This document shows, one piece after another, positions 61-8,531 of a DNA stretch of 10,442 nt. Position 1 is the stretch's first letter. Each line of letters starts with the position of its first letter. Both the position numbers and the translations under genes were made by a program. The notes under the pieces are model-generated. The model did no database searches. It was given only the letters and a program-made list of their open reading frames with translations, and had not been told where the DNA came from. The DNA is taken from positions 1 to 10,442 of the forward strand of contig JBNJFE010000026.1 of assembly GCA_051746505.1 (NCBI GenBank). Direction: 5' to 3'. Origin of the DNA: Campylobacterota bacterium (GTDB lineage: Bacteria; Campylobacterota; Campylobacteria; Campylobacterales; Sulfurovaceae).

Positions 61-1980
61 TTAGTATTCACCTTTATAATTGGCACTTAGCAGGTAGTGT
101 ACGTCCAGCTCGTGCAGGGAGGTGACCATCTTGGGATCATCGACGTATGCTATGATCGTTTGAGCCCCGGCTTCGCTGATCATAAACTGCAGGGCTTTGA
201 CCCTGCTTTTATCCTCAAAATACAGTTTTTCCACATAATCCTGATCGACAATAATAAAGCGGGGTTTGATGCGCTGCAGATAGGTCAGCTTCTCCTGTGC
301 CAGCGTAAAGCCGCTGATGGCGATATAATGCCCGAAGCGGTACACCAGTTTGGCAAACTGTATCATCTTGTCGATTTCCTGCTGGGCGACGTCGTCTTTT
401 ATGGTAAAGCAGATTTTGATATTTGGGTTTTGCCGGAGTTCTTCGAGTTTATTGCCAAGCCAGCGTATATGGTCCAGACTGCCGATGAAATCGCTTGAAA
501 TCGTCACCATCGCCGTGATTTTATGGTTGATCATGCGGTATCTGCTGCAGATTTTATCCAAAACCTTTTTATTATAATCGGCCACAAGCCCCTTTTCATA
601 CAAAATAGAGAAAAACTCCCGCTTGGAATAACTGTTTTCCTCCCGGTCGACGATATAAACAAGGACTTTCAGAAAGCTTTTTTTATCCTCTTTGAGGTCC
701 TGGATGGGGCGCAGTTCGATATTGAAGCCGTCATTGTTAAAAGCGTATTCGATGAGGTCGATGCGTTCCTCTTTGGACAACGCCTTGTGGCCGTGGCCGG
801 TGATGGCGATCTTTTTGTTATCGGTTTTGATCATGGCCTCATTCAGAGCGGTATCCAGTCTGGAAAGCAGGCTTTTGGTGCTTTCACCCTTTTCGTATTC
901 GCTCATTGAGATCGCAATAGACGTTTGCATATCTTTAAACTTGTTTTGCAGTTTTTCTTCCAGCTGATGGTATTGTTTGTCAATATGCTGCTTGATCTGG
1001 CTTAAACTGTGTTCGGTGAACAGGTAGGCAAACGTATCTGGCTTGATGCGCGCCAGTATCGTATAGCCAAGGTCGGTATTTTGCAGCTGGGCCGAAAATG
1101 TCTGCAGCGCGTCATTGATCTGGTTGTAACTGTGGGCTTTGTTGAGCTGATCGTAATTTGTGATTTTTATAAATACGACGACGCCGCTTTCGTGGGATGT
1201 TTTGTTTTCCAGCTCGGTGGAGAGGTGCATCATAAAGTAGCTTCGGTTATGCAGCCCCGTTTGATCGTCGTTGTAAATAAGCTCGTAATAGCGGTTGAGC
1301 ATTTCGGTATCTTTTTTAAACTTGGATTTGAGATTGACCACGCTTTCATTGAGCATCACCACCAACTCCCGCAAATCCTGGGTTTTTGGGTATTCGCGGT
1401 TTTCTATAAATTTCCCCTCTTTTAAATGAAATATCTGTTTGCGCAACGCCTGCAGGGGCTGCAGGAGCGATTTGAAAAGAAGTGCCGTCAGTATCACGGC
1501 TACGATATAGGCAAGGGCAAAATAGACAAAGAGCGTATAAAATTCCTTCATGATTTTTTGCTGCATCACCTTCTTATCCGGTGTTATCGACGCGGCAAGG
1601 TTTTTATCCCCACTTCCCTTGAAATTGACCGTCACGGGAGTTGAGGTAAAACCGGCGACTGTTTGTGCGAGCATTCCGGCACTTTGGGAAGTAGAAGAGA
1701 AATCTTTATCATACAGGGTATTTCCCACAAAATCTTCTATGTGCACATGAGTAAAACGGTTGCCGCTAAAAACGGCATCGGCTGCTATTGCGAGGTTTTT
1801 GGCGGCAAAATCTTTGTGCATCAGCATCGTTTCAAGCTGGCCGGTTGCATGCTTTGCCTCCTGCTTTGCCGCGGTAAGGATTTCATGCTTTAGATGGGAA
1901 AAAGAAAAGAAAAACAGTGTCGTTACAAGCAGAAAAAAGAGTATGGAAAAAGAAAAAAGAGATTTTGTGTATAAACTCAT
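61..1980 (-). CDS. LapD-like inner-membrane signalling protein with TM, periplasmic domain, TM, HAMP, degenerate GGDEF and degenerate EAL
   Basis: The 639-aa ORF has an N-terminal TM helix (res ~7-27), a ~120-aa periplasmic segment and a second TM (~147-170). The GGDEF-domain onset is DQTGLHNR, but the GG(D/E)EF motif is replaced by KPDTF. In the EAL domain the EAL motif reads KVL, DDFGTG is replaced by ISGFTL and EGVE by AYVDD. KVL is the motif I recall from Pseudomonas LapD. A TATAAT -10 box lies on the minus strand at 2012-2017, and the RBS aaggat sits 6 nt before the ATG. Confidence 0.75.
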   Translation of the reverse strand: MSLYTKSLFSFSILFFLLVTTLFFFSFSHLKHEILTAAKQEAKHATGQLETMLMHKDFAAKNLAIAADAVFSGNRFTHVHIEDFVGNTLYDKDFSSTSQSAGMLAQTVAGFTSTPVTVNFKGSGDKNLAASITPDKKVMQQKIMKEFYTLFVYFALAYIVAVILTALLFKSLLQPLQALRKQIFHLKEGKFIENREYPKTQDLRELVVMLNESVVNLKSKFKKDTEMLNRYYELIYNDDQTGLHNRSYFMMHLSTELENKTSHESGVVVFIKITNYDQLNKAHSYNQINDALQTFSAQLQNTDLGYTILARIKPDTFAYLFTEHSLSQIKQHIDKQYHQLEEKLQNKFKDMQTSIAISMSEYEKGESTKSLLSRLDTALNEAMIKTDNKKIAITGHGHKALSKEERIDLIEYAFNNDGFNIELRPIQDLKEDKKSFLKVLVYIVDREENSYSKREFFSILYEKGLVADYNKKVLDKICSRYRMINHKITAMVTISSDFIGSLDHIRWLGNKLEELRQNPNIKICFTIKDDVAQQEIDKMIQFAKLVYRFGHYIAISGFTLAQEKLTYLQRIKPRFIIVDQDYVEKLYFEDKSRVKALQFMISEAGAQTIIAYVDDPKMVTSLHELDVHYLLSANYKGEY

Positions 1981-2084
1981 AAGGCAATCCTTAAATAAAA
2001 TTCATGCCTCTATTATACTGTGATTTTATTAAGCGGTGATAAAATTACAAAAAATTTGTAATATATCAAGTTCAGTCTTGTTTC

Positions 2085-2118
2085 AAAAAGTAAAGCTTCG
2101 GGGCAGAAAGCCCCGAAA
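2085..2118 (-). terminator. Rho-independent terminator downstream of acs
   Basis: An 8-bp perfect stem, ttcggggc/gccccgaa at 2098-2105 and 2111-2118, encloses a 5-nt loop. It sits immediately after the acs stop codon. On the minus-strand transcript it is followed by gcuuuacuuuuug, which is U-rich. On the plus strand no U tract follows. Confidence 0.6.
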
Positions 2119-2125
2119 ACGGTAA

Positions 2126-4087
2126 TTACTCTTCCATAATCTTTGCGATCTTGTCGACAATGGAAGGGTCTTCCAGCGTTGAAGTATCCTGGGCCACTTC
2201 TTCGCCTTTGGCAAGACTTCGAAGGATTCTTCTCATGATTTTGCCGCTTCTTGTTTTCGGCAAGCCCGGAACAAACGCGATATCGTCGCATTTCGCGATC
2301 GCGCCGATCTCATCGATGATAAGCGCGTTGATCTCTTTGGTCAATTCCAACTCATCCGCCACGCCGTCTTTTTCCTCTACCGGTACGGATTTGAGGACGA
2401 CGTAGGCAAAGATGCCTTCACCCTTGATCTTGTGGGGTTTGCCCACAACTGCCACTTCTGCCACATGGTCGTGGTTTTTGATCGCTGCTTCAACTTCGGC
2501 CGTACCCATTCTGTGGCCGCTTACGTTGATAACGTCATCGGTTCTGCCTGTGATGGTGATATAGCCGTCTTCATCGATCATCGCGCCGTCGCCGCTGAAA
2601 TAAACGGGTTTGCCGTCTTTCTTGCAGTCGCCGAAATAGGATTTTTTAAACCGCTCTTCATCGCCCCAGATCGTTCGGATCATTGAAGGCCACGGTTTGG
2701 TGACGCATAAAAAGCCTTTTTTGCCCGTTTGGGTCGGAGTACCGTCTTCTTCGATCACTTCGGCTTTGATACCCGGAAGCGGGAAGGTCGCGCATGCGGG
2801 CTTGATCGGCGTTGCCGCAGGCAGCGGCGTAATCATATGGCCGCCTGTTTCAGTCTGCCACCAGGTATCCACGATCGAACACTGTCCGGTGCCCACTTCG
2901 TTGTAGTACCAACTCCACGCTTCGGGGTCGATTGGTTCACCCACGGTACCAAGGATTCTAAGCGAACTCAGGTCGTATTTCGCAGGCTCGTCCGGGCCTG
3001 TTTTGTGCAGCATACGGATCGCTGTGGGCGCTGTGTAGAACTGGTTGATTTTGTATTCTTCGACCATTCTCCAGCATCTGCCCGCGTCGGGGTATGTCGG
3101 CACGCCTTCAAACATGATCGTGGTCGCGCCGGCTGCCAGCGGACCGTATACGATGTAAGTGTGCCCCGTGATCCAGCCGATATCAGCCGTGCACCAGAAG
3201 GTGTCGTTGTCTTTGATGTCAAAGGTCCACTCCATAGTCATCTGCGCCCAGAGGATATAACCCGCGCTTGAATGCTGTACCCCTTTTGGTTTGCCCGTAG
3301 AACCGCTGGTATAAAGCAGGAACAGGGGATGCTCGCTGTCAACGGGCTCGGCGTCGCATCTGCTTGATTGGCTTTTGACCAGTTCGTGGTACGCGTAATC
3401 ACGTCCGGCGACCCACTCGATATCCTCGCCGTTACGCTCAACGACGCAGACTTTGTCTACACATTCACACCCCTGGGACAGCGCTTTGTCCACAACGGGC
3501 TTGAGCATATAGGGTTTGCCTTTTCTGTATGCCCCGTCAGCGGTAACGACCAGTTTGGCTTCCGCGTCGATAATTCTGTCTCTGAGCGCGTCGGCGCTGA
3601 AGCCGCCAAAGACGATACTGTGGATCGCGCCGATTCGGGCACACGCCAGCATCGCCACCGCCGCTTCGGGGATCATGGGCATATAGATAACAACCCGGTC
3701 GCCTTTTTGTACGCCGAATTTGTTTTTGAACATATTGGCTGTTTTATTGACTTCATAATACAACTCTCTGTATGTCAGAACCTGCTGATCGCCGTTATCG
3801 CCTTCAAAAATGATAGCGGCTTTGTTCTTTTTATCCTGTAAGTGTCTGTCCACACACTGATGGGCAACATTGAGTTTGCCGCCGTTAAACCATTTGTAAA
3901 AGGGCGCGTCGCTTTCATCTAAGACCGTATCATAGTCTTCAAACCAGTCGATTCTGTCTTGGGCAAAGCAGCTCCATGTACCTTCATAATCTTTTTCAAA
4001 CTTTTCTACCAGATCTTGATACTCGCACATATTTTGAATCAGCGGTGCGTCAAACATTTCTTTTTGGGGGTAATAAATCTTGGACAT
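2126..4087 (-). CDS. acs: Acetyl-CoA synthetase (AMP-forming)
   Basis: The 653-aa ORF carries the AMP-binding signature [11 protein letters not shown] and aligns end to end with acetate-CoA ligases, including [14 protein letters not shown] and FSGDGA. The C-terminal [14 protein letters not shown] block contains the conserved catalytic lysine that is the known target of acetylation. Confidence 0.97.
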
Positions 4088-4118
4088 AGCAGTTTCCTTT
4101 TCCTATTTGAGACTCGGT

Positions 4119-4140
4119 ATTTCTTGTGACTTCAAGAAAT
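4119..4140. promoter_or_regulatory. Inverted repeat ATTTCTTG-N6-CAAGAAAT in the acs 5' region
   Basis: The repeat has 8-bp perfect arms separated by 6 bp and lies 32-53 bp upstream of the acs start codon at 4087. It is a candidate operator or 5'UTR element. Because the region is AT-rich, the repeat could be a chance occurrence. Confidence 0.25.
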
Positions 4141-4333
4141 ATATCAGTATAACTATATTTTTATAACATAGCAATAGTGTAGCATCTCTTTAAAAGTTGT
4201 GTATTTTTCTTACAACTTCCTGCTGAGTGTGAATTTTAGTAACATATGGCAGCGCTTAGGGTTGCAAAGCGTAGAAATAATAATATTGTTTAAGAAAAAT
4301 TTGAGCAAAAATGTGTAGTTCTGGCTGTGCGGG

Positions 4334-4349
4334 CATCGGCGCGCCGATG
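4334..4349. repeat. 16-bp perfect GC-rich palindrome CATCGGCGCGCCGATG
   Basis: The palindrome is read directly from the sequence. It is embedded in an otherwise AT-rich intergenic region and is followed by a -10-like tcATAAT. It may be a binding site for a dimeric regulator. Confidence 0.5.
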
Positions 4350-4408
4350 TTCATAATACGTTAATGAAAAGTTTATAAATCATTAAATTTTTAAGCGTAC
4401 AATTTCAC

Positions 4409-4422
4409 TGTCCCCCAAGCAA
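4409..4422 (+). repeat. 14-bp direct repeat TGTCCCCCAAGCAA, copy 1
   Basis: An identical 14-mer recurs at 4655-4668, 246 bp downstream in the same regulatory region. Confidence 0.6.
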
Positions 4423-4482
4423 TACCCTCCCGGTACCGTCTTCAGGTGCCGGGCCCCGAATTTACGGACAAGGAGGCCGGCC

Positions 4483-4830
4483 ATGTGCAAAAAAACAGCG
4501 ATCACGACAGTTAGCGCATTTTTGTCAGCGGTCCGAGGCATCCATCCAAAGCAGTGGGACCAGACAGTAAAAGCGCACGCGGGCAAAGCGTCTGCTTGGT
4601 TTCGATCCGGTCAGACAAACGATACCCTGATACGACAATTTTTCCATCTTGACTTGTCCCCCAAGCAAAATGAACAACTCCTTTTATTGCGGATCAAACA
4701 CAGGCAGCCCGTCCCTTCTCCCGCTGGCGCTTTGAAGGCTCACGGCTTTGAAAAAGACAGATATATCGATATAATGCCCCAAAAAAAGACACAACAAGCC
4801 AAAGCCCGGTCAATCGATAACAGACAGTGA
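4483..4830 (+). CDS. Hypothetical small basic protein of 115 aa; it is uncertain whether this ORF is coding
   Basis: A perfect Shine-Dalgarno AAGGAGG sits 6 nt before the ATG, and the ORF ends 13 nt before the response-regulator start. The protein has no recognisable domain and looks low-complexity or disordered, especially in its C-terminal half. A near-consensus sigma70-type promoter lies inside its 3' end. The region may instead be a structured leader or sRNA. Confidence 0.3.
   Translation: MCKKTAITTVSAFLSAVRGIHPKQWDQTVKAHAGKASAWFRSGQTNDTLIRQFFHLDLSPKQNEQLLLLRIKHRQPVPSPAGALKAHGFEKDRYIDIMPQKKTQQAKARSIDNRQ
4655..4668 (+). repeat. 14-bp direct repeat TGTCCCCCAAGCAA, copy 2
   Basis: This copy is identical to 4409-4422. 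It lies inside the questionable small ORF and about 80 bp upstream of the predicted -35 at 4748. Confidence 0.6.
4748..4775 (+). promoter_or_regulatory. Sigma70-type promoter TTGAAA-N16-TATAAT for the response-regulator and kinase operon
   Basis: TTGAAA lies at 4748-4753 and TATAAT at 4770-4775, with a 16-bp spacer. A 12-bp palindrome TATATCGATATA at 4762-4773 overlaps the -10 box and is a possible autoregulatory operator. The predicted leader of about 60 nt contains the RBS aaggata ahead of the GTG at 4844. Confidence 0.4.
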
Positions 4831-4843
4831 AAGGATAGAAACG

Positions 4844-5533
4844 GTGATACGCGTAGCAATGGTCGAGGATGATCTGGATTTAGCCAATCTCCTCACCGAA
4901 TATTTACAACAGTTTTCGATCGAAGTTGACAGCTTTGAAGATCCTTTCATCGCTTTAAGCGCGATCGGTTTAAAAGAGTATGATCTGATCATTCTCGATC
5001 TTTCGCTGCCGGGCATGGACGGCCTTGAAGTTTGTAAAGAGCTGGTGGACAAATATGAAATCCCAATCATTATATCATCGGCAAGAAGCGATATAGCCGA
5101 TAAAGTCACCGCACTGCAACTGGGTGCGGATGACTACCTTCCAAAACCCTATGACCCCCGAGAACTTGAAGTGCGTATAAAAGCGCTGCTTCGAAGAACC
5201 AATAAAGGCAGTCCGCAAGACAGCGGCAAAGAAAGCAGCGGCGGTATCTTTGTGTATGACCCCAGAAAAAAAATTATTACCAAAAACGGCAGCGAGCTAC
5301 AGCTGACTGCGGCGGAGTTTGAACTTTTGAGCCTGCTCATCAGCAGAAAAGGGTTTGTCGTCAGCCGCGAAGAGATTCTTAACGAATGCGAACTGCTGCA
5401 CAGCGATGATGAAAAAAGCAGTTCGATTGCCGTTATCATCAGCCGAATCCGCTCCAAAATCGAAGCCAACAGCAAAAGACCCCAGTATCTGGTGACCGTC
5501 CGCGGCGTGGGATACAAGCTCAAAGAGGAATAA
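4844..5533 (+). CDS. OmpR/PhoB-family two-component response regulator
   Basis: The receiver domain shows VAMVEDD, the phospho-acceptor context DLIILDLSLPGMDG and the conserved PIIISSARSD with lysine. The C-terminal winged-helix has LTAAEFELLSLL and YLVTVRGVGYKL. A GTG start at 4844 is preferred, with the RBS aaggat 6 nt upstream. The ATG at 4859 is the alternative start. Confidence 0.9.
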   Translation: MIRVAMVEDDLDLANLLTEYLQQFSIEVDSFEDPFIALSAIGLKEYDLIILDLSLPGMDGLEVCKELVDKYEIPIIISSARSDIADKVTALQLGADDYLPKPYDPRELEVRIKALLRRTNKGSPQDSGKESSGGIFVYDPRKKIITKNGSELQLTAAEFELLSLLISRKGFVVSREEILNECELLHSDDEKSSSIAVIISRIRSKIEANSKRPQYLVTVRGVGYKLKEE

Positions 5534-6787
5534 TTGCCCAAAACAAACTCTATTTTCTTTACCATTTCGCTTGTGTTTGCCATCGCGGGATTTTCTATTT
5601 TGATCAGTTTTTATTTTCTGCATCAAGCCAATACGATGCAGCATCAAAGCTTTTTGGAAAGAAAGCACTTTGCCGTTTCGCGTATCCTCATCCGCGCCCA
5701 CAACGAGGATATGATTTCCAAGGACCTTTTATCCTCCCTGGATTCGCTTAATTACAAACTCAAAACCGATCTGCAGCAGATCGCGGATTTTTTGCAGGAT
5801 GAGGATGTGGTGCTGCTGCACTCAAAAGATTTGCAAAACGGGCAAAGTGTCAATATTTACCAGATGCGAAACCATCATTATATCCTGGTCAACTCCTCAG
5901 GCAGTCTGTATCTGCTCAAAGACAAAACGCCGGTCGTGTTTTTCAACCCCGCCATTATCATTATCTTTTTAGCCATTATGGCGGTATTTATCCTTATATA
6001 CCTGACCACGGTGCGCAAACTGTATCCCATCAAAACGCTGAAAAACCATATTAAAAAGCTGGGCAATGAATCTTTTGATATCAAGTACAATATCAAAGGC
6101 AGCGATGAAATATCCGAACTGGCCCAGGAGTTTGCCAAGAGTTCCAAACGTTTGGAAAAACTCAAAGAATCGCGCAATATTTTTATACGCAATATCATGC
6201 ATGAACTCAAAACCCCCATCATGAAAGGCAAGCTTTTAAACGAATTGCCAAAGACCGAAGATAACAATGAAAAGATGAAGGAAGTTTTTTACCGGCTGGA
6301 AAATTTGATCAACGAGTTTGCCAGTATCGAGGAAGTGATCGCCGCATCAGAAAGTATCACGATGAAAAGCTACTCCATAGCCGACGTGATCGATAACGCA
6401 AAAGATATGCTGCTGTATGACGAAGACAGTGAGCGCATTGTTGTCCAAAACGCTTCTGCGTGCACCCAGAACGTTACGCTTAACTTCAAGCTTGCCTCTA
6501 TCGCGTTTAAAAACCTCCTTGATAATGCGATGAAATACGCAGAGGATAAAAAGGTCACGATCGTATGCCGCACGGATGCGGTGAGCTTTCAAAACAGGGC
6601 TAAGCCCTTAAGCGAAGATTTACAAACCTATTTTGAACCCTTTGTCAAAGACGCCAAGCAAAATAGTTCCAGCTTTGGCCTGGGATTGTATATCGTGAAA
6701 AAAATCCTGGAAGTACACGGGTTTGATTTAGCCTATACCCATGAACAGGGATACAATATCTTTACGGTGCGCTTTACAGATCGCTGA
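5534..6787 (+). CDS. Sensor histidine kinase with 2 TM helices, a periplasmic domain of about 105 aa, HAMP, and HisKA plus HATPase domains
   Basis: The H-box is IMHELKTPI, the N-box LLDNAMKYA and the G2 box GLGLYIVKKIL. TM helices lie at about 8-30 and 138-160. A TTG start follows the regulator's TAA stop directly in the same frame, and a GTG at 5573 is the alternative. The G1 (DxGxG) box is not recognisable. Confidence 0.85.
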   Translation: MPKTNSIFFTISLVFAIAGFSILISFYFLHQANTMQHQSFLERKHFAVSRILIRAHNEDMISKDLLSSLDSLNYKLKTDLQQIADFLQDEDVVLLHSKDLQNGQSVNIYQMRNHHYILVNSSGSLYLLKDKTPVVFFNPAIIIIFLAIMAVFILIYLTTVRKLYPIKTLKNHIKKLGNESFDIKYNIKGSDEISELAQEFAKSSKRLEKLKESRNIFIRNIMHELKTPIMKGKLLNELPKTEDNNEKMKEVFYRLENLINEFASIEEVIAASESITMKSYSIADVIDNAKDMLLYDEDSERIVVQNASACTQNVTLNFKLASIAFKNLLDNAMKYAEDKKVTIVCRTDAVSFQNRAKPLSEDLQTYFEPFVKDAKQNSSSFGLGLYIVKKILEVHGFDLAYTHEQGYNIFTVRFTDR

Positions 6788-7226
6788 AATCGATATCGCT
6801 GCTGTCAAAGGAATCGTTTTTGGTAAAAAAGGCGGGTTCCTTGCCGCCGGCGTGATCGAGCAGATCGCAAAGCCGATACAGCAGTTTGTGCGCATCTTTG
6901 TCCGTTGCCTTTAACAGCGTGGACGCCAGCTTTGGATTGTGCTTTTGATCAAGCAGTCTGGTATAGAGGTTTTTGATCGCAAAATGCGACTCTTCCAGGT
7001 CCGTATACTGGTAAAAAAGCAGAAAATACCCCTCTTCTAACTCCAGTACCGTGTCACTGGGGCGCGTCATTTTGTCCAGCATCTGTTTGTCAAGTGAAGA
7101 ATCGGCCCGCAGTATAGCGACGCTGACGGGAACGTCGTATTTGATGAGCTGGTTGAGAAAGTGCGGCAGGGTCTGCTGCGTGGTTTCACTCCAGGGTTTG
7201 ATGCGTTGAAAACAGTGTTGGGCCAT
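6774..7226 (-). CDS. Hypothetical 150-aa protein with a degenerate GGDEF-like (nucleotidyl-cyclase-fold) core
   Basis: The segment VAILRADSSLDKQMLDKMTRPSDTVLELEEGYFLLFYQYTDLEES follows the GGDEF-domain pattern (vallDiD...R..D...RlGGDEFlll..t.le.a), with LEEGY in place of GGDEF. The DxLTGLxNR onset is absent. The ORF converges with the kinase 3' end and overlaps it by 14 bp, and it is divergent from the EncFtn gene. Confidence 0.5.
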   Translation of the reverse strand: MAQHCFQRIKPWSETTQQTLPHFLNQLIKYDVPVSVAILRADSSLDKQMLDKMTRPSDTVLELEEGYFLLFYQYTDLEESHFAIKNLYTRLLDQKHNPKLASTLLKATDKDAHKLLYRLCDLLDHAGGKEPAFFTKNDSFDSSDIDFSDL

Positions 7227-7307
7227 GGCGGTCTCGCTTTTTTCTTTTCATTGTACTAAAAAATGTCTGTTAAAGAAAACTTTGGTACCATATTTGCAAA
7301 GGCTTTG

Positions 7308-7322
7308 TAAAAAAGCTTTTTA
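7308..7322. promoter_or_regulatory. Palindrome TAAAAAAGCTTTTTA in the divergent promoter region upstream of the encapsulin operon
   Basis: The AAAAAGCTTTTT core at 7310-7321 is a perfect palindrome lying 25-35 bp upstream of the EncFtn ATG. The inverted repeat CTTTG-N12-CAAAG lies just 5' of it. It could be an operator for a metal or redox regulator, or it could be chance in AT-rich DNA. Confidence 0.2.
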
Positions 7323-7345
7323 CTCCAACGAAAAAGGAAACGAAA

Positions 7346-7717
7346 ATGGCTCATGAAGGTTTTCACGAAGATCCAAGTCAATTATCAAATTACGCAAAAG
7401 ATTATCACAGAATCATAGAAAGTACGATGGAAGAACTTGAAGCGGTAGACTGGTACAACCAGCGGGCCGAGTGCGCCACCGACGAGGAGGCCAGGCGCAT
7501 TATGGAACACAACCGTGATGAAGAGATTGAACACGCCTGCATGGGTATTGAGTGGCTGCGCAAAAATTCGCCCGTGTGGGATGAGATGCTAAGGGAGTTT
7601 TTATTTAAAGACGGCGATATCGTCGGCAACGAAGAAGCAATGACCGGCGGTGAAAGCCAGGAAAGCGAGCCCGCGGGCAGCGGCGGTACGCTCAATATCG
7701 GAAAAAACAGCAGATAA
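7346..7717 (+). CDS. Encapsulated ferritin-like protein (EncFtn), an encapsulin cargo with a C-terminal targeting peptide
   Basis: The core MEELEAVDWYNQRAECATDEEARRIMEHNRDEEIEHACMGIEWLRKNSPVWDEMLREFLF matches the EncFtn or Flp four-helix ferroxidase family, with conserved Glu and His iron ligands in the ExxH contexts. The C-terminus is a Gly/Ser/Glu-rich linker ending in GSGGTLNIGKNSR, which resembles the encapsulin cargo-loading peptide consensus (S/T)LxIGxL(K/R). The RBS aaggaaa lies 5 nt upstream. Confidence 0.85.
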   Translation: MAHEGFHEDPSQLSNYAKDYHRIIESTMEELEAVDWYNQRAECATDEEARRIMEHNRDEEIEHACMGIEWLRKNSPVWDEMLREFLFKDGDIVGNEEAMTGGESQESEPAGSGGTLNIGKNSR

Positions 7718-7727
7718 AGGAGAGATA

Positions 7728-8531
7728 ATGGAAATTTTAAACAGAGTAAACGCCCCTTTCGGTGAGGGCGTATGGAGTGAAATCGATGAGGTTATGGGGG
7801 AGTTTTTAGGCAAACGCCTTAACCTTAGAGCCGCGGTTGATTTCAAAGACGGGTATGATTATCATACTGACGGTATTTCCACGGGAGAAATTAAATCCGT
7901 CTCAAATAAAAACGATCTGAGCATTCAGGCAAGAGTGCCTTTAAATATGATCGAAATCAAAAAGCGTTTTAAACTGGGCGGCAGCGTGATCGAAGATATC
8001 AAACGGGGTATGAGCGATTATGACGACAGCGCGTTTGCCGATGCTGCTAACGCCTTTGCCGCAAGTGAAAACGGTATGATCCTGCAAGGTATGAAACAAG
8101 CTGGAATCGAGGGGATCATGAGCAGCGGCGAAGTCAAAAGCGTCAGTGTGAATTCTGCCAAGGATATCCTCTCAGCCGTGGCCAAGGGCCTTGGTACGTT
8201 TAACAAAGAGTTTGTCGGCGGTCCCTTTAAACTCGTGATATCAAGTGCGACCATGGCCAAGCTGTATACGGAATTTTTTGACGGTATCAGCGTCAAAGCC
8301 AAGCTTGATGATATCCTGGGCGCAGGCAATATCGTAGTTAACGAAGATATCGGTGACAAAGACGCGCTGCTGCTTTCGCAGCAGGGCGGAGACTTTGAAT
8401 TTTACAGCGGGCTTGACGTAAGCGTGGGCTTTGAGAAAGAGACCAAAGACGGTGTGGAACTGTTTATAACCCAGACATGCGCGTTTCGAGTGCTTGGCCC
8501 AGAAGCGGCTATAGCCATCAAGATGAAATAA
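7728..8531 (+). CDS. Family-1 encapsulin nanocompartment shell protein (HK97 fold)
   Basis: The 267-aa product runs MEILNRVNAPF...GGDFEFYSGLDVSVGFEKETKDGVELFITQTCAFRVLGPEAAIAIKMK and aligns along its full length with Thermotoga maritima encapsulin, including the C-terminal GGDF...LFITETF motif. The ATG at 7728 has the RBS AAAGGAGAG and sits 10 nt after the EncFtn stop. The tabulated start at 7650 would overlap EncFtn and is rejected. Confidence 0.9.
   Translation: MEILNRVNAPFGEGVWSEIDEVMGEFLGKRLNLRAAVDFKDGYDYHTDGISTGEIKSVSNKNDLSIQARVPLNMIEIKKRFKLGGSVIEDIKRGMSDYDDSAFADAANAFAASENGMILQGMKQAGIEGIMSSGEVKSVSVNSAKDILSAVAKGLGTFNKEFVGGPFKLVISSATMAKLYTEFFDGISVKAKLDDILGAGNIVVNEDIGDKDALLLSQQGGDFEFYSGLDVSVGFEKETKDGVELFITQTCAFRVLGPEAAIAIKMK

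Follow-up and report, generated by a model that had tools for sequence, protein, structure and literature searches.

A very divergent LapD relative beside acs in Campylobacterota, lacking the LapG-docking tryptophan and most c-di-GMP pocket residues

The locus described here raises the question whether a membrane protein that is built like LapD also works like LapD. The window, by which we mean the whole stretch of DNA that was analysed, comprises 10,442 nucleotides of contig JBNJFE010000026.1 from a Campylobacterota bacterium (assembly GCA_051746505.1). At 61..1980 on the minus strand it contains a single open reading frame (ORF) coding for a protein of 639 residues, termed the query below. 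The ORF listing gave these limits, and direct reading of the sequence showed an ATG start codon with an AAGGA Shine-Dalgarno sequence 8 nt before it. To our knowledge, LapD is the textbook case of inside-out signalling by cyclic diguanylate (c-di-GMP), and every description of it to date has included LapG. The initial annotation had taken the architecture of the query as the mark of a c-di-GMP receptor that controls a periplasmic protease. This claim was not supported by closer analysis: the GWxQ, PxWF and LW motifs of the periplasmic domain are lost, the arginine R450 of LapD is replaced by a tyrosine, the EAL domain retains no more than 2 of 12 signature positions and acs stands in the slot of lapG. 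We arrive instead at a descendant of LapD that may have been uncoupled from LapG.

Relationship of the protein to LapD

A word-indexed search found a protein identical to the query (P0001, labelled 'EAL domain-containing protein' at NCBI) in a metagenome-assembled genome (MAG) of Campylobacterota, and four relatives at about 49% identity. The clade comprises five to six orthologues and about seven known sequences, all from MAGs or metagenomes of uncultured Campylobacterota/Campylobacterales. The gene and the parts of its product are listed here with the evidence for each.

61..1980, minus strand: complete gene for a LapD-like, degenerate GGDEF-EAL membrane protein of 639 residues, with its TAA stop at 61-63 (ORF listing; identical protein P0001; ratio of non-synonymous to synonymous substitution rates, dN/dS or omega)
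1891..1962, minus strand: transmembrane (TM) helix 1, about residues 7-30 (hydropathy scan; continuous helix over residues 2-54 in the AlphaFold2 (AF2) model)
1543..1890, minus strand: periplasmic domain, residues 31-146, with a degraded LapD_MoxY_N-type fold and without tryptophan (hhalign; hidden Markov model (HMM) of the LapD periplasmic domain; Foldseek; positions of Trp)
1597..1617, minus strand: beta3-beta4 hairpin tip with residues 122-128 (GSGDKNL), where LapD has its GWxQ LapG-docking loop (A3 alignment; AF2)
1465..1542, minus strand: TM helix 2, about residues 147-172 (hydropathy scan; AF2 helix 136-187)
1285..1464, minus strand: HAMP-like two-helix module and S-helix, residues 173-232 (clade alignment; AF2; NCBIfam LapD model, which aligns from residue 142)
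796..1284, minus strand: degenerate GGDEF domain, residues 233-395 (Pfam GGDEF; alignment to LapD)
1030..1044, minus strand: KPDTF in place of GG(D/E)EF, residues 313-317 (sequence reading; aligned to RGGEF of LapD)
64..771, minus strand: degenerate EAL domain, residues 404-639, with an intact fold and replaced pocket residues (Pfam EAL; TM-score; signature columns; omega 0.034)
655..669, minus strand: residues 438-442, which read KVLVY where ExLxR is expected (aligned by phmmer with LapD 3pjw and FimX 4j40)

The order of TM helix, periplasmic domain, TM helix, HAMP, GGDEF with KPDTF and EAL with KVL, as initially annotated, was borne out by the ORF, the hydropathy scan, Pfam and the AF2 model. 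The segment between the TM helices has about 116 residues and is periplasmic according to the hydropathy scan; in the AF2 model the strands of the hairpin are formed by residues 116-121 and 127-134. HAMP scored below the Pfam threshold in the query. The region aligns with that of the LapD relatives, of which 13 of 75 match Pfam HAMP, and the AF2 model shows a helix (136-187), a connector and then a second helix (201-236). In the clade alignment, the HAMP-like module and the S-helix form the most conserved stretch of the N-terminal part.

The GGDEF domain was matched by Pfam over residues 237-384 (E 1.6e-18) and the EAL domain over residues 411-630 (E 1.2e-20). In the alignment, 'ARIKPDTFAY' of the query pairs with 'TRIRGGEFAV' of LapD, and all members of the clade have KPDTF except for one with K-S-D-T-F. 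The connector pair D238/R311 is invariant in the clade. The RxxD I-site is absent from the GGDEF domain, with LGYT at that position of the translation. The alignments also verified the remaining substitutions that had been noted, namely KVL at the EAL motif, ISGF for DDFG and AYVD for EGVE. With their active-site motifs replaced, both domains are catalytically dead, as had been proposed.

The descent of the N-terminal half was followed with a profile of 230 residues (TM1, periplasmic domain, TM2 and HAMP) from five clade sequences, which was scored against 1.84 billion representative proteins. Three representatives were found at E <= 1e-30, and the clade is therefore tiny. About 330 further representatives followed at E <= 1e-3 (333 in total), almost all of them about 640 residues long and collinear with the profile from residue 1. 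The search returned LapD_MoxY_N proteins almost exclusively: 70 of the 75 relatives tested carry this Pfam domain (best E 5.6e-47), all 75 match the NCBIfam LapD model at E <= 1e-10, and their consensus displays the LapD periplasmic motifs VPxWF, GWxxxG and AYxxLW.

The query itself gave fainter signals. At the Pfam gathering threshold, LapD_MoxY_N (PF16448) found no match in residues 31-146, and the sole match to this family in the query, at residues 335-373 inside the GGDEF domain (E 0.013), is spurious. The best NCBIfam model was that of LapD (NF045673); it scored 140.8 bits, with the cut-off at 1020, and covered residues 142-594 only. To rule out that the TM helices or HAMP were driving the match to LapD, the periplasmic segments were excised and each group was realigned separately. 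The periplasm-only comparison by hhalign with 114 LapD relatives gave a probability of 92.7% and an E value of 4.2e-7 over 80 columns. An HMM of the LapD periplasmic segments alone scored the query segment at 18.0 bits, whereas the best of 2000 shuffled decoys reached 9.7 bits; the segment of P0009, the sixth member of the clade, scored 32.7 bits. The suggestion that the periplasmic segment is a LapD/MoxY domain thus holds as remote homology and as fold, but fails at the Pfam gathering threshold.

The AF2 model had a predicted local distance difference test score (pLDDT) of 92.2 over the full length and of 90.9 for the periplasmic domain alone. For the full model, the best matches in the PDB were the S-helix-GGDEF-EAL modules of LapD from V. 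cholerae and P. fluorescens. The EAL part superimposed on the EAL domain of LapD with c-di-GMP bound (3pju/3pjt) with a target-normalised TM-score of 0.85. When the periplasmic domain was modelled alone, the output domain of CdgS9, the Legionella LapD orthologue (4u64), was the sole PDB match at E <= 0.001 (TM 0.65, 120 columns), followed by P. fluorescens LapD (3pjv) and then by generic sensor domains of the PDC type.

The likeness to the known proteins, i.e. LapD of P. fluorescens Pf0-1, CdgS9 of Legionella, LapD of V. cholerae and BpfD of Shewanella, therefore includes the length, the order of the domains, the two dead domains and a homology that is distant yet significant and spans the full protein, the LapD/MoxY periplasmic fold included. 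It also includes the KVL at the EAL motif (in P. fluorescens), the conserved D/R connector between S-helix and GGDEF domain, and the fact that LapD matches the query best among NCBIfam models and PDB folds alike. In contrast, the identity is 15-22%, the tryptophans of GWxQ, PxWF and LW are missing, R450 is a Tyr, other residues stand for the Gln in QP and in QG, the Lys in KxD, the first Glu in ExxE and the Asp in DDFG, and lapG, type I secretion and adhesin genes are not found nearby. Taken together, the comparisons of sequence and predicted fold identify the query as a genuine, though very divergent, member of the LapD superfamily along its entire length.

The LapG-docking surface and the lapG locus

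The output domain of LapD is domain-swapped and has the conserved motifs PxWF, GWxQ and LW (Navarro et al. 2011; PMC3032553). W125 at the tip of the hairpin is essential for the binding of LapG, which is abolished by the W125E exchange (PMC3032553). No periplasmic tryptophan was found in P0001-P0005, whose only Trp is in the EAL domain. In the A3 alignment, the GW column is occupied by Trp in 94% of the 114 relatives, compared with G, E, D, T and Q in P0001-P0005 and K in the sixth member; G124 of the query aligns to W125. Likewise, the PxWF column has Trp in 91% of the relatives and L, V, L, F and P in P0001-P0005, the query having Leu. The LW column has Met in the query. The residues that are conserved in the periplasmic domain of the clade, about six of them invariant, belong mainly to its core (A67, F71, I81, D83 and F84).

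The sixth member, P0009, is the most basal one (42% identity) and stands at the same syntenic position (L002/L006 10001-11917, 'Epsilonproteobacteria bacterium tcs-49'). This positional orthologue shows a faint LapD_MoxY_N match. It keeps the Trp of PxWF only (VPDWF) and has lost the GW Trp and the Arg of ExLxR. With VPDWF retained and GW gone, it resembles an evolutionary intermediate between a canonical LapD and the clade of the query.

In all homologues surveyed by Navarro et al., lapD and lapG share one operon (PMC3032553). The same arrangement was found in three of three canonical relatives (loci L008, L009 and L010), where lapG overlaps the start of lapD and the two genes are thus coupled in translation. 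For P0011 (L008 7360-9914) and P0051 the overlapping gene encodes a Peptidase_C93 protein, and giant ORFs or genes for outer-membrane components of type I secretion lie alongside; P0011 has a type I secretion operon next door. For P0014 the overlapping gene encodes a LapG homologue with 33% identity to the Peptidase_C93 protein of L008 (E 2e-31). This 206-residue homologue, encoded upstream of P0014 at L009 1671-2291, has no Pfam match on record, and some divergent LapGs therefore escape precomputed Pfam annotation.

In the window, the gene directly upstream of the query is acs (2126..4087, minus strand) and 60 nt are left downstream, as initially described. The sequence past the edge of the window was followed in the locus of a 94%-identical orthologue (L005). 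Searches by tblastn with two LapG sequences, which detect each other at about 1e-31, found nothing in the window, L001, L002, L003 and L005. In the loci examined, no type I secretion or adhesin genes were found near the query gene. The observation that no LapG or adhesin gene is adjacent was thereby extended past the window by four orthologous loci. In the clade of the query, acs is the upstream gene in every orthologous locus, and no candidate periplasmic partner is encoded beside the gene in any of them.

These results bear on the idea implied at the outset, that the query is a LapD-type c-di-GMP receptor which controls a LapG and an adhesin encoded elsewhere in the genome. It would be in keeping with the full-length homology and fold match to LapD and with the KVL shared with P. 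fluorescens LapD. Some LapG-linked LapD homologues, moreover, are also strongly degenerate in the EAL pocket, and the absence of lapG is established for the loci around the gene. Yet the residue equivalent to W125 is a Gly in a periplasmic domain that is devoid of Trp, PxWF and LW are gone too, and R450 is matched by a Tyr. The LapD model is also missed by a wide score difference, and lapG, which shares an operon with lapD in the three relatives mentioned and in the systems of Navarro et al., is absent from five loci of the clade. Control of a distant LapG is on this evidence quite improbable.

The EAL pocket, selection and possible mode of action

R450 of LapD follows just after KVL and lies at the centre of the c-di-GMP site (PMC3032553). 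Whether degenerate EAL receptors bind c-di-GMP is reported to depend on the ExLxR motif, and in CsrD the binding is lost through a single L-to-M change (PMC10333796, PMC9276943). The contacts of single residues to c-di-GMP were taken from these statements (PMC10333796, PMC9276943) and from general knowledge of the EAL signature residues. Twelve signature positions were tracked: QP, E-x-L-x-R, NLS, ExxE, the second Asp of DDFG, KxD, the last Glu of EGVE, and QG.

The phmmer alignments paired 'LKVLVYIVD' of the query with 'YKVLSRLLD' of LapD and 'YEVLLRLLN' of FimX, which places Y442 at R450 of LapD and at the corresponding Arg of FimX. Across the clade, this column reads Y, F, F, F, L and N, so residue 442 is hydrophobic or aromatic in 5 of 6 members. 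Elsewhere in the pocket of the query, the Gln of QP is replaced by R424, which is invariant in the clade, the Lys of KxD by I577 and the Gln of QG by L631. At the catalytic and metal positions, K438 was found for the Glu of EAL, T493 for the Asn of NLS, T526 in ExxE, S556/G557 in DDFG, I577 in KxD and A611/Y612 in EGVE. Altogether, 2 of the 12 positions are kept in the query and 0-2 in the clade, whereas about two thirds of the relatives keep at least 6, and no more than 5 remain in 39 of the 114. The KVL, to which weight had been given, is indeed identical to that of P. fluorescens LapD; it is no hallmark of the family, because most LapD relatives (86 of 114) have E at this position.

Degeneration of the EAL domain was also considered as proof that the query is not a LapD, and this argument is weakened by the relatives. 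The Arg of ExLxR is missing in 44 of the 114 (about 40%), which still have the GW Trp, and the LapG-linked P0011 keeps 3 of the 12 positions. A degenerate EAL domain alone can therefore not exclude control of LapG. By the ExLxR rule, the LapG-linked relatives without the Arg should not bind c-di-GMP canonically. The Lys of KxD is kept in 99 and the first Glu of ExxE in 105 of the 114 relatives, and both are lost in the clade of the query. What is specific to this clade is the combined loss of all periplasmic Trp motifs and of the lapG linkage, together with the most extreme erosion of the pocket, including the KxD Lys and the ExxE Glu.

The selection on the gene was estimated by comparison with the orthologue in L005, which gave an overall omega of 0.079 at a dS of 0.34. 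By region, omega was 0.034 for the EAL domain, 0.051 for the GGDEF domain, 0.10 for TM2/HAMP/S-helix and 0.13 for the periplasmic domain; purifying selection is thus strong on every part. The dead cytoplasmic module is the most constrained part of the protein and the periplasmic domain the least. Members with only 42-49% identity have over 150 invariant positions in common, and invariant motifs specific to the clade are ELRPIQDL, SILYEKG, HIRWLG and a C-terminal NYKGEY. Such a low omega means that the gene is functional and not a relic. The query would otherwise be a functionless remnant of a former lap locus that had lost lapG and the adhesin gene, as might be suspected from the missing LapD motifs in the periplasmic and EAL domains and from a small clade on a long branch. 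This is hardly credible with a reading frame that is intact in 6 of 6 members, with the lowest omega in the 'dead' domains, with so many invariant positions, a conserved syntenic position and confident AF2 models; a pseudogene is rejected by the dN/dS values.

As the residues for LapG docking and for c-di-GMP binding are lost, the protein probably does a different job from that of LapD. The reading that we favour, with about half of our confidence behind it, is that of a LapD descendant uncoupled from LapG, which acts as a HAMP-coupled, dimeric transmembrane adaptor. The query would no longer be a c-di-GMP-gated trap for LapG. HAMP and the S-helix would still couple the periplasmic domain to the conserved degenerate GGDEF-EAL module, and this module would signal through protein-protein contact and not through canonical binding of c-di-GMP, following the logic of CsrD or of dead EAL proteins of the YdiV type.

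CsrD of E. coli (GAPES4-HAMP followed by degenerate GGDEF and EAL domains) is, like the query, a membrane protein with two TM helices and two degenerate domains. It does not bind c-di-GMP and acts via macromolecular interactions, which makes it a functional analogue for a c-di-GMP-blind adaptor. The NCBIfam CsrD model (PRK11059) matched residues 5-557 of the query with 102.4 bits against a cut-off of 663. GAPES4 was not among the Pfam matches of the query at E <= 0.1, and the periplasmic domain, in contrast to that of CsrD, is of the LapD/MoxY type. The match to the CsrD model reflects the shared architecture, because all LapD relatives match it too, equally well or better than the query, and an assignment to CsrD was rejected. 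CsrB/C small RNAs and RNase E are not known as features of Campylobacterota.

FimX of Pseudomonas and Xanthomonas gave the best PDB sequence match for the GGDEF-EAL module (4j40, E 1.2e-15), and both of its domains are dead as well. FimX, however, is cytoplasmic with a REC/PAS N-terminus, whereas the query is anchored in the membrane by its two TM helices. FimX also binds c-di-GMP and retains ExLxR (as EVLLR), the KxD Lys and the Gln of both QP and QG; the query has lost those residues.

Several observations weigh against the adaptor. The absence of lapG covers +-7-10 kb of MAG contigs. The many relatives that lack the ExLxR Arg while keeping the GW Trp, and P0011 with its eroded pocket and its adjacent lapG, show that such a pocket is compatible with a LapG-linked locus. 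R424 might in principle make up for the missing Arg. A motif conserved in the clade, (E/K)-N-(L/I)-x with N127 invariant, is retained at the tip of the hairpin, so the LapD output surface may still dock something. The AF2 input alignments consisted mostly of LapD relatives, and the fold match is therefore not fully independent of the sequence evidence. The adaptor mechanism itself is one that we infer.

Some of these points would fit better with a retargeted inside-out receptor, in which a remodelled EAL pocket senses c-di-GMP in a non-canonical way, or another nucleotide, in the cytoplasm, the signal still passes outward through HAMP, and a re-tooled hairpin with x-(E/K)-N-(L/I)-x for GWxQ captures a periplasmic partner other than LapG. 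The hairpin tip is the only element of the periplasmic surface loops with a clade-conserved motif, the replacement residues in the pocket (R424 and the hydrophobic or aromatic residue at 442) are conserved, the EAL domain has the lowest omega and the HAMP/S-helix region is highly conserved. In addition, intact RxxD-GGEEF and GGDEF-EAL enzymes (EALVR, DDFG, EGIE) are encoded near the orthologues, and the lineage therefore makes c-di-GMP. That LapD-like logic can be rebuilt from other parts is demonstrated by DvhD of Desulfovibrio vulgaris, which works without the docking tryptophan and with different molecular parts (PMC13090378). DvhD is not homologous, has dCache, PAS and HD-GYP domains and is encoded together with the protease DvhG and an adhesin; the query is the reverse case, with the LapD parts kept and the partner genes missing from the loci. 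Against a retargeted receptor, no candidate for the captured partner is encoded beside the gene, the periplasmic domain evolves fastest with its about six invariant residues, and the metal ligands Asn and Glu have gone along with the ExLxR Arg, the KxD Lys and the QG Gln. We consider this alternative unlikely, while giving it real weight. In its boldest form, a LapD-derived receptor would be re-tooled at both ends, with the (E/K)-N-(L/I)-x hairpin for a partner other than LapG and the pocket (Q to R at 424, R to aromatic at 442) for a non-canonical ligand; this is speculative and rather doubtful. If true, Campylobacterota would have built a novel output for inside-out signalling on the LapD chassis.

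Genomic setting and meaning for the LapD family

In every orthologous locus, the gene downstream of acs has the look of a transcription unit of its own. The conserved adjacency to acs had made an operon of the two genes conceivable. Two elements were located between them.

2096..2118, minus strand: terminator-like hairpin with 6 G-C pairs among its 9 and a T-rich tail behind it, immediately following the stop codon of acs (consensus scan)
2012..2050, minus strand: promoter-like elements, TTGTAA-16-TAAAAT from 2050 to 2023 and a perfect TATAAT from 2017 to 2012 (consensus scan and sequence reading)

Given these elements, which are consensus matches only, co-transcription with acs is not favoured, and they suggest that the LapD-like gene is a separate transcription unit. 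A further perfect palindromic hairpin (GCAGGGCTTTGACCCTGC) at window positions 189-206 is terminator-like on both strands; it lies inside the coding region of the EAL domain and is probably fortuitous.

The order of histidine kinase and response regulator genes (OmpR-type), divergent acs and LapD-like gene is kept in all four loci compared (window 2126-6787, L001, L002 and L005). Between the loci, the acs products are 88-98% identical and the LapD-like proteins 43-94%, and the LapD-like gene therefore evolves much faster than acs. Downstream of the orthologues, modABC/modE, nadC, TauE, an SSF symporter and rhodanese genes were found. In L005, the SSF-family symporter gene lies about 4 kb downstream and is preceded by an ORF of 106 residues, an arrangement that presumably recalls the acs-yjcH-actP acetate module of E. 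coli.

Farther upstream, between the histidine kinase gene and znuBC-like ABC genes, the window contains an EncFtn encapsulated-ferritin gene (7346-7717) and a Linocin_M18 encapsulin ORF (7650-8531). An unannotated ORF of 150 residues without a family match lies on the opposite strand of this block (6774-7226). The block (window 6774-8531) is also present in L005 (3451-5163) and absent from the syntenic loci L001 and L002, and thus looks like an insertion. The longest encapsulin ORF starts with GTG at 7650 and overlaps EncFtn by 68 nt, with a Pfam match from residue 27; translation probably begins at the ATG of 'MEILNRV', near 7725.

The practical impact is limited, as the clade is tiny, is found on MAGs and metagenome contigs only and allows no partner or phenotype to be proposed with confidence. 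Among the papers listed by our literature search, none links LapD or LapG to Campylobacterota. For annotation, the query is a caution that an architecture of TM helices, HAMP and degenerate GGDEF and EAL domains alone is insufficient to name a LapD-type receptor. The roughly 40% of LapD_MoxY_N relatives without the ExLxR Arg but with the docking Trp, at least one of them linked to LapG, may interest the wider c-di-GMP field. If the uncoupling holds true, a conserved LapD descendant without docking Trp, ExLxR and lapG linkage would show that the LapD chassis can be repurposed. In conclusion, the LapD-like clade is probably a repurposed LapD chassis, and as such a variation on a known protein family and not a new kind of system.

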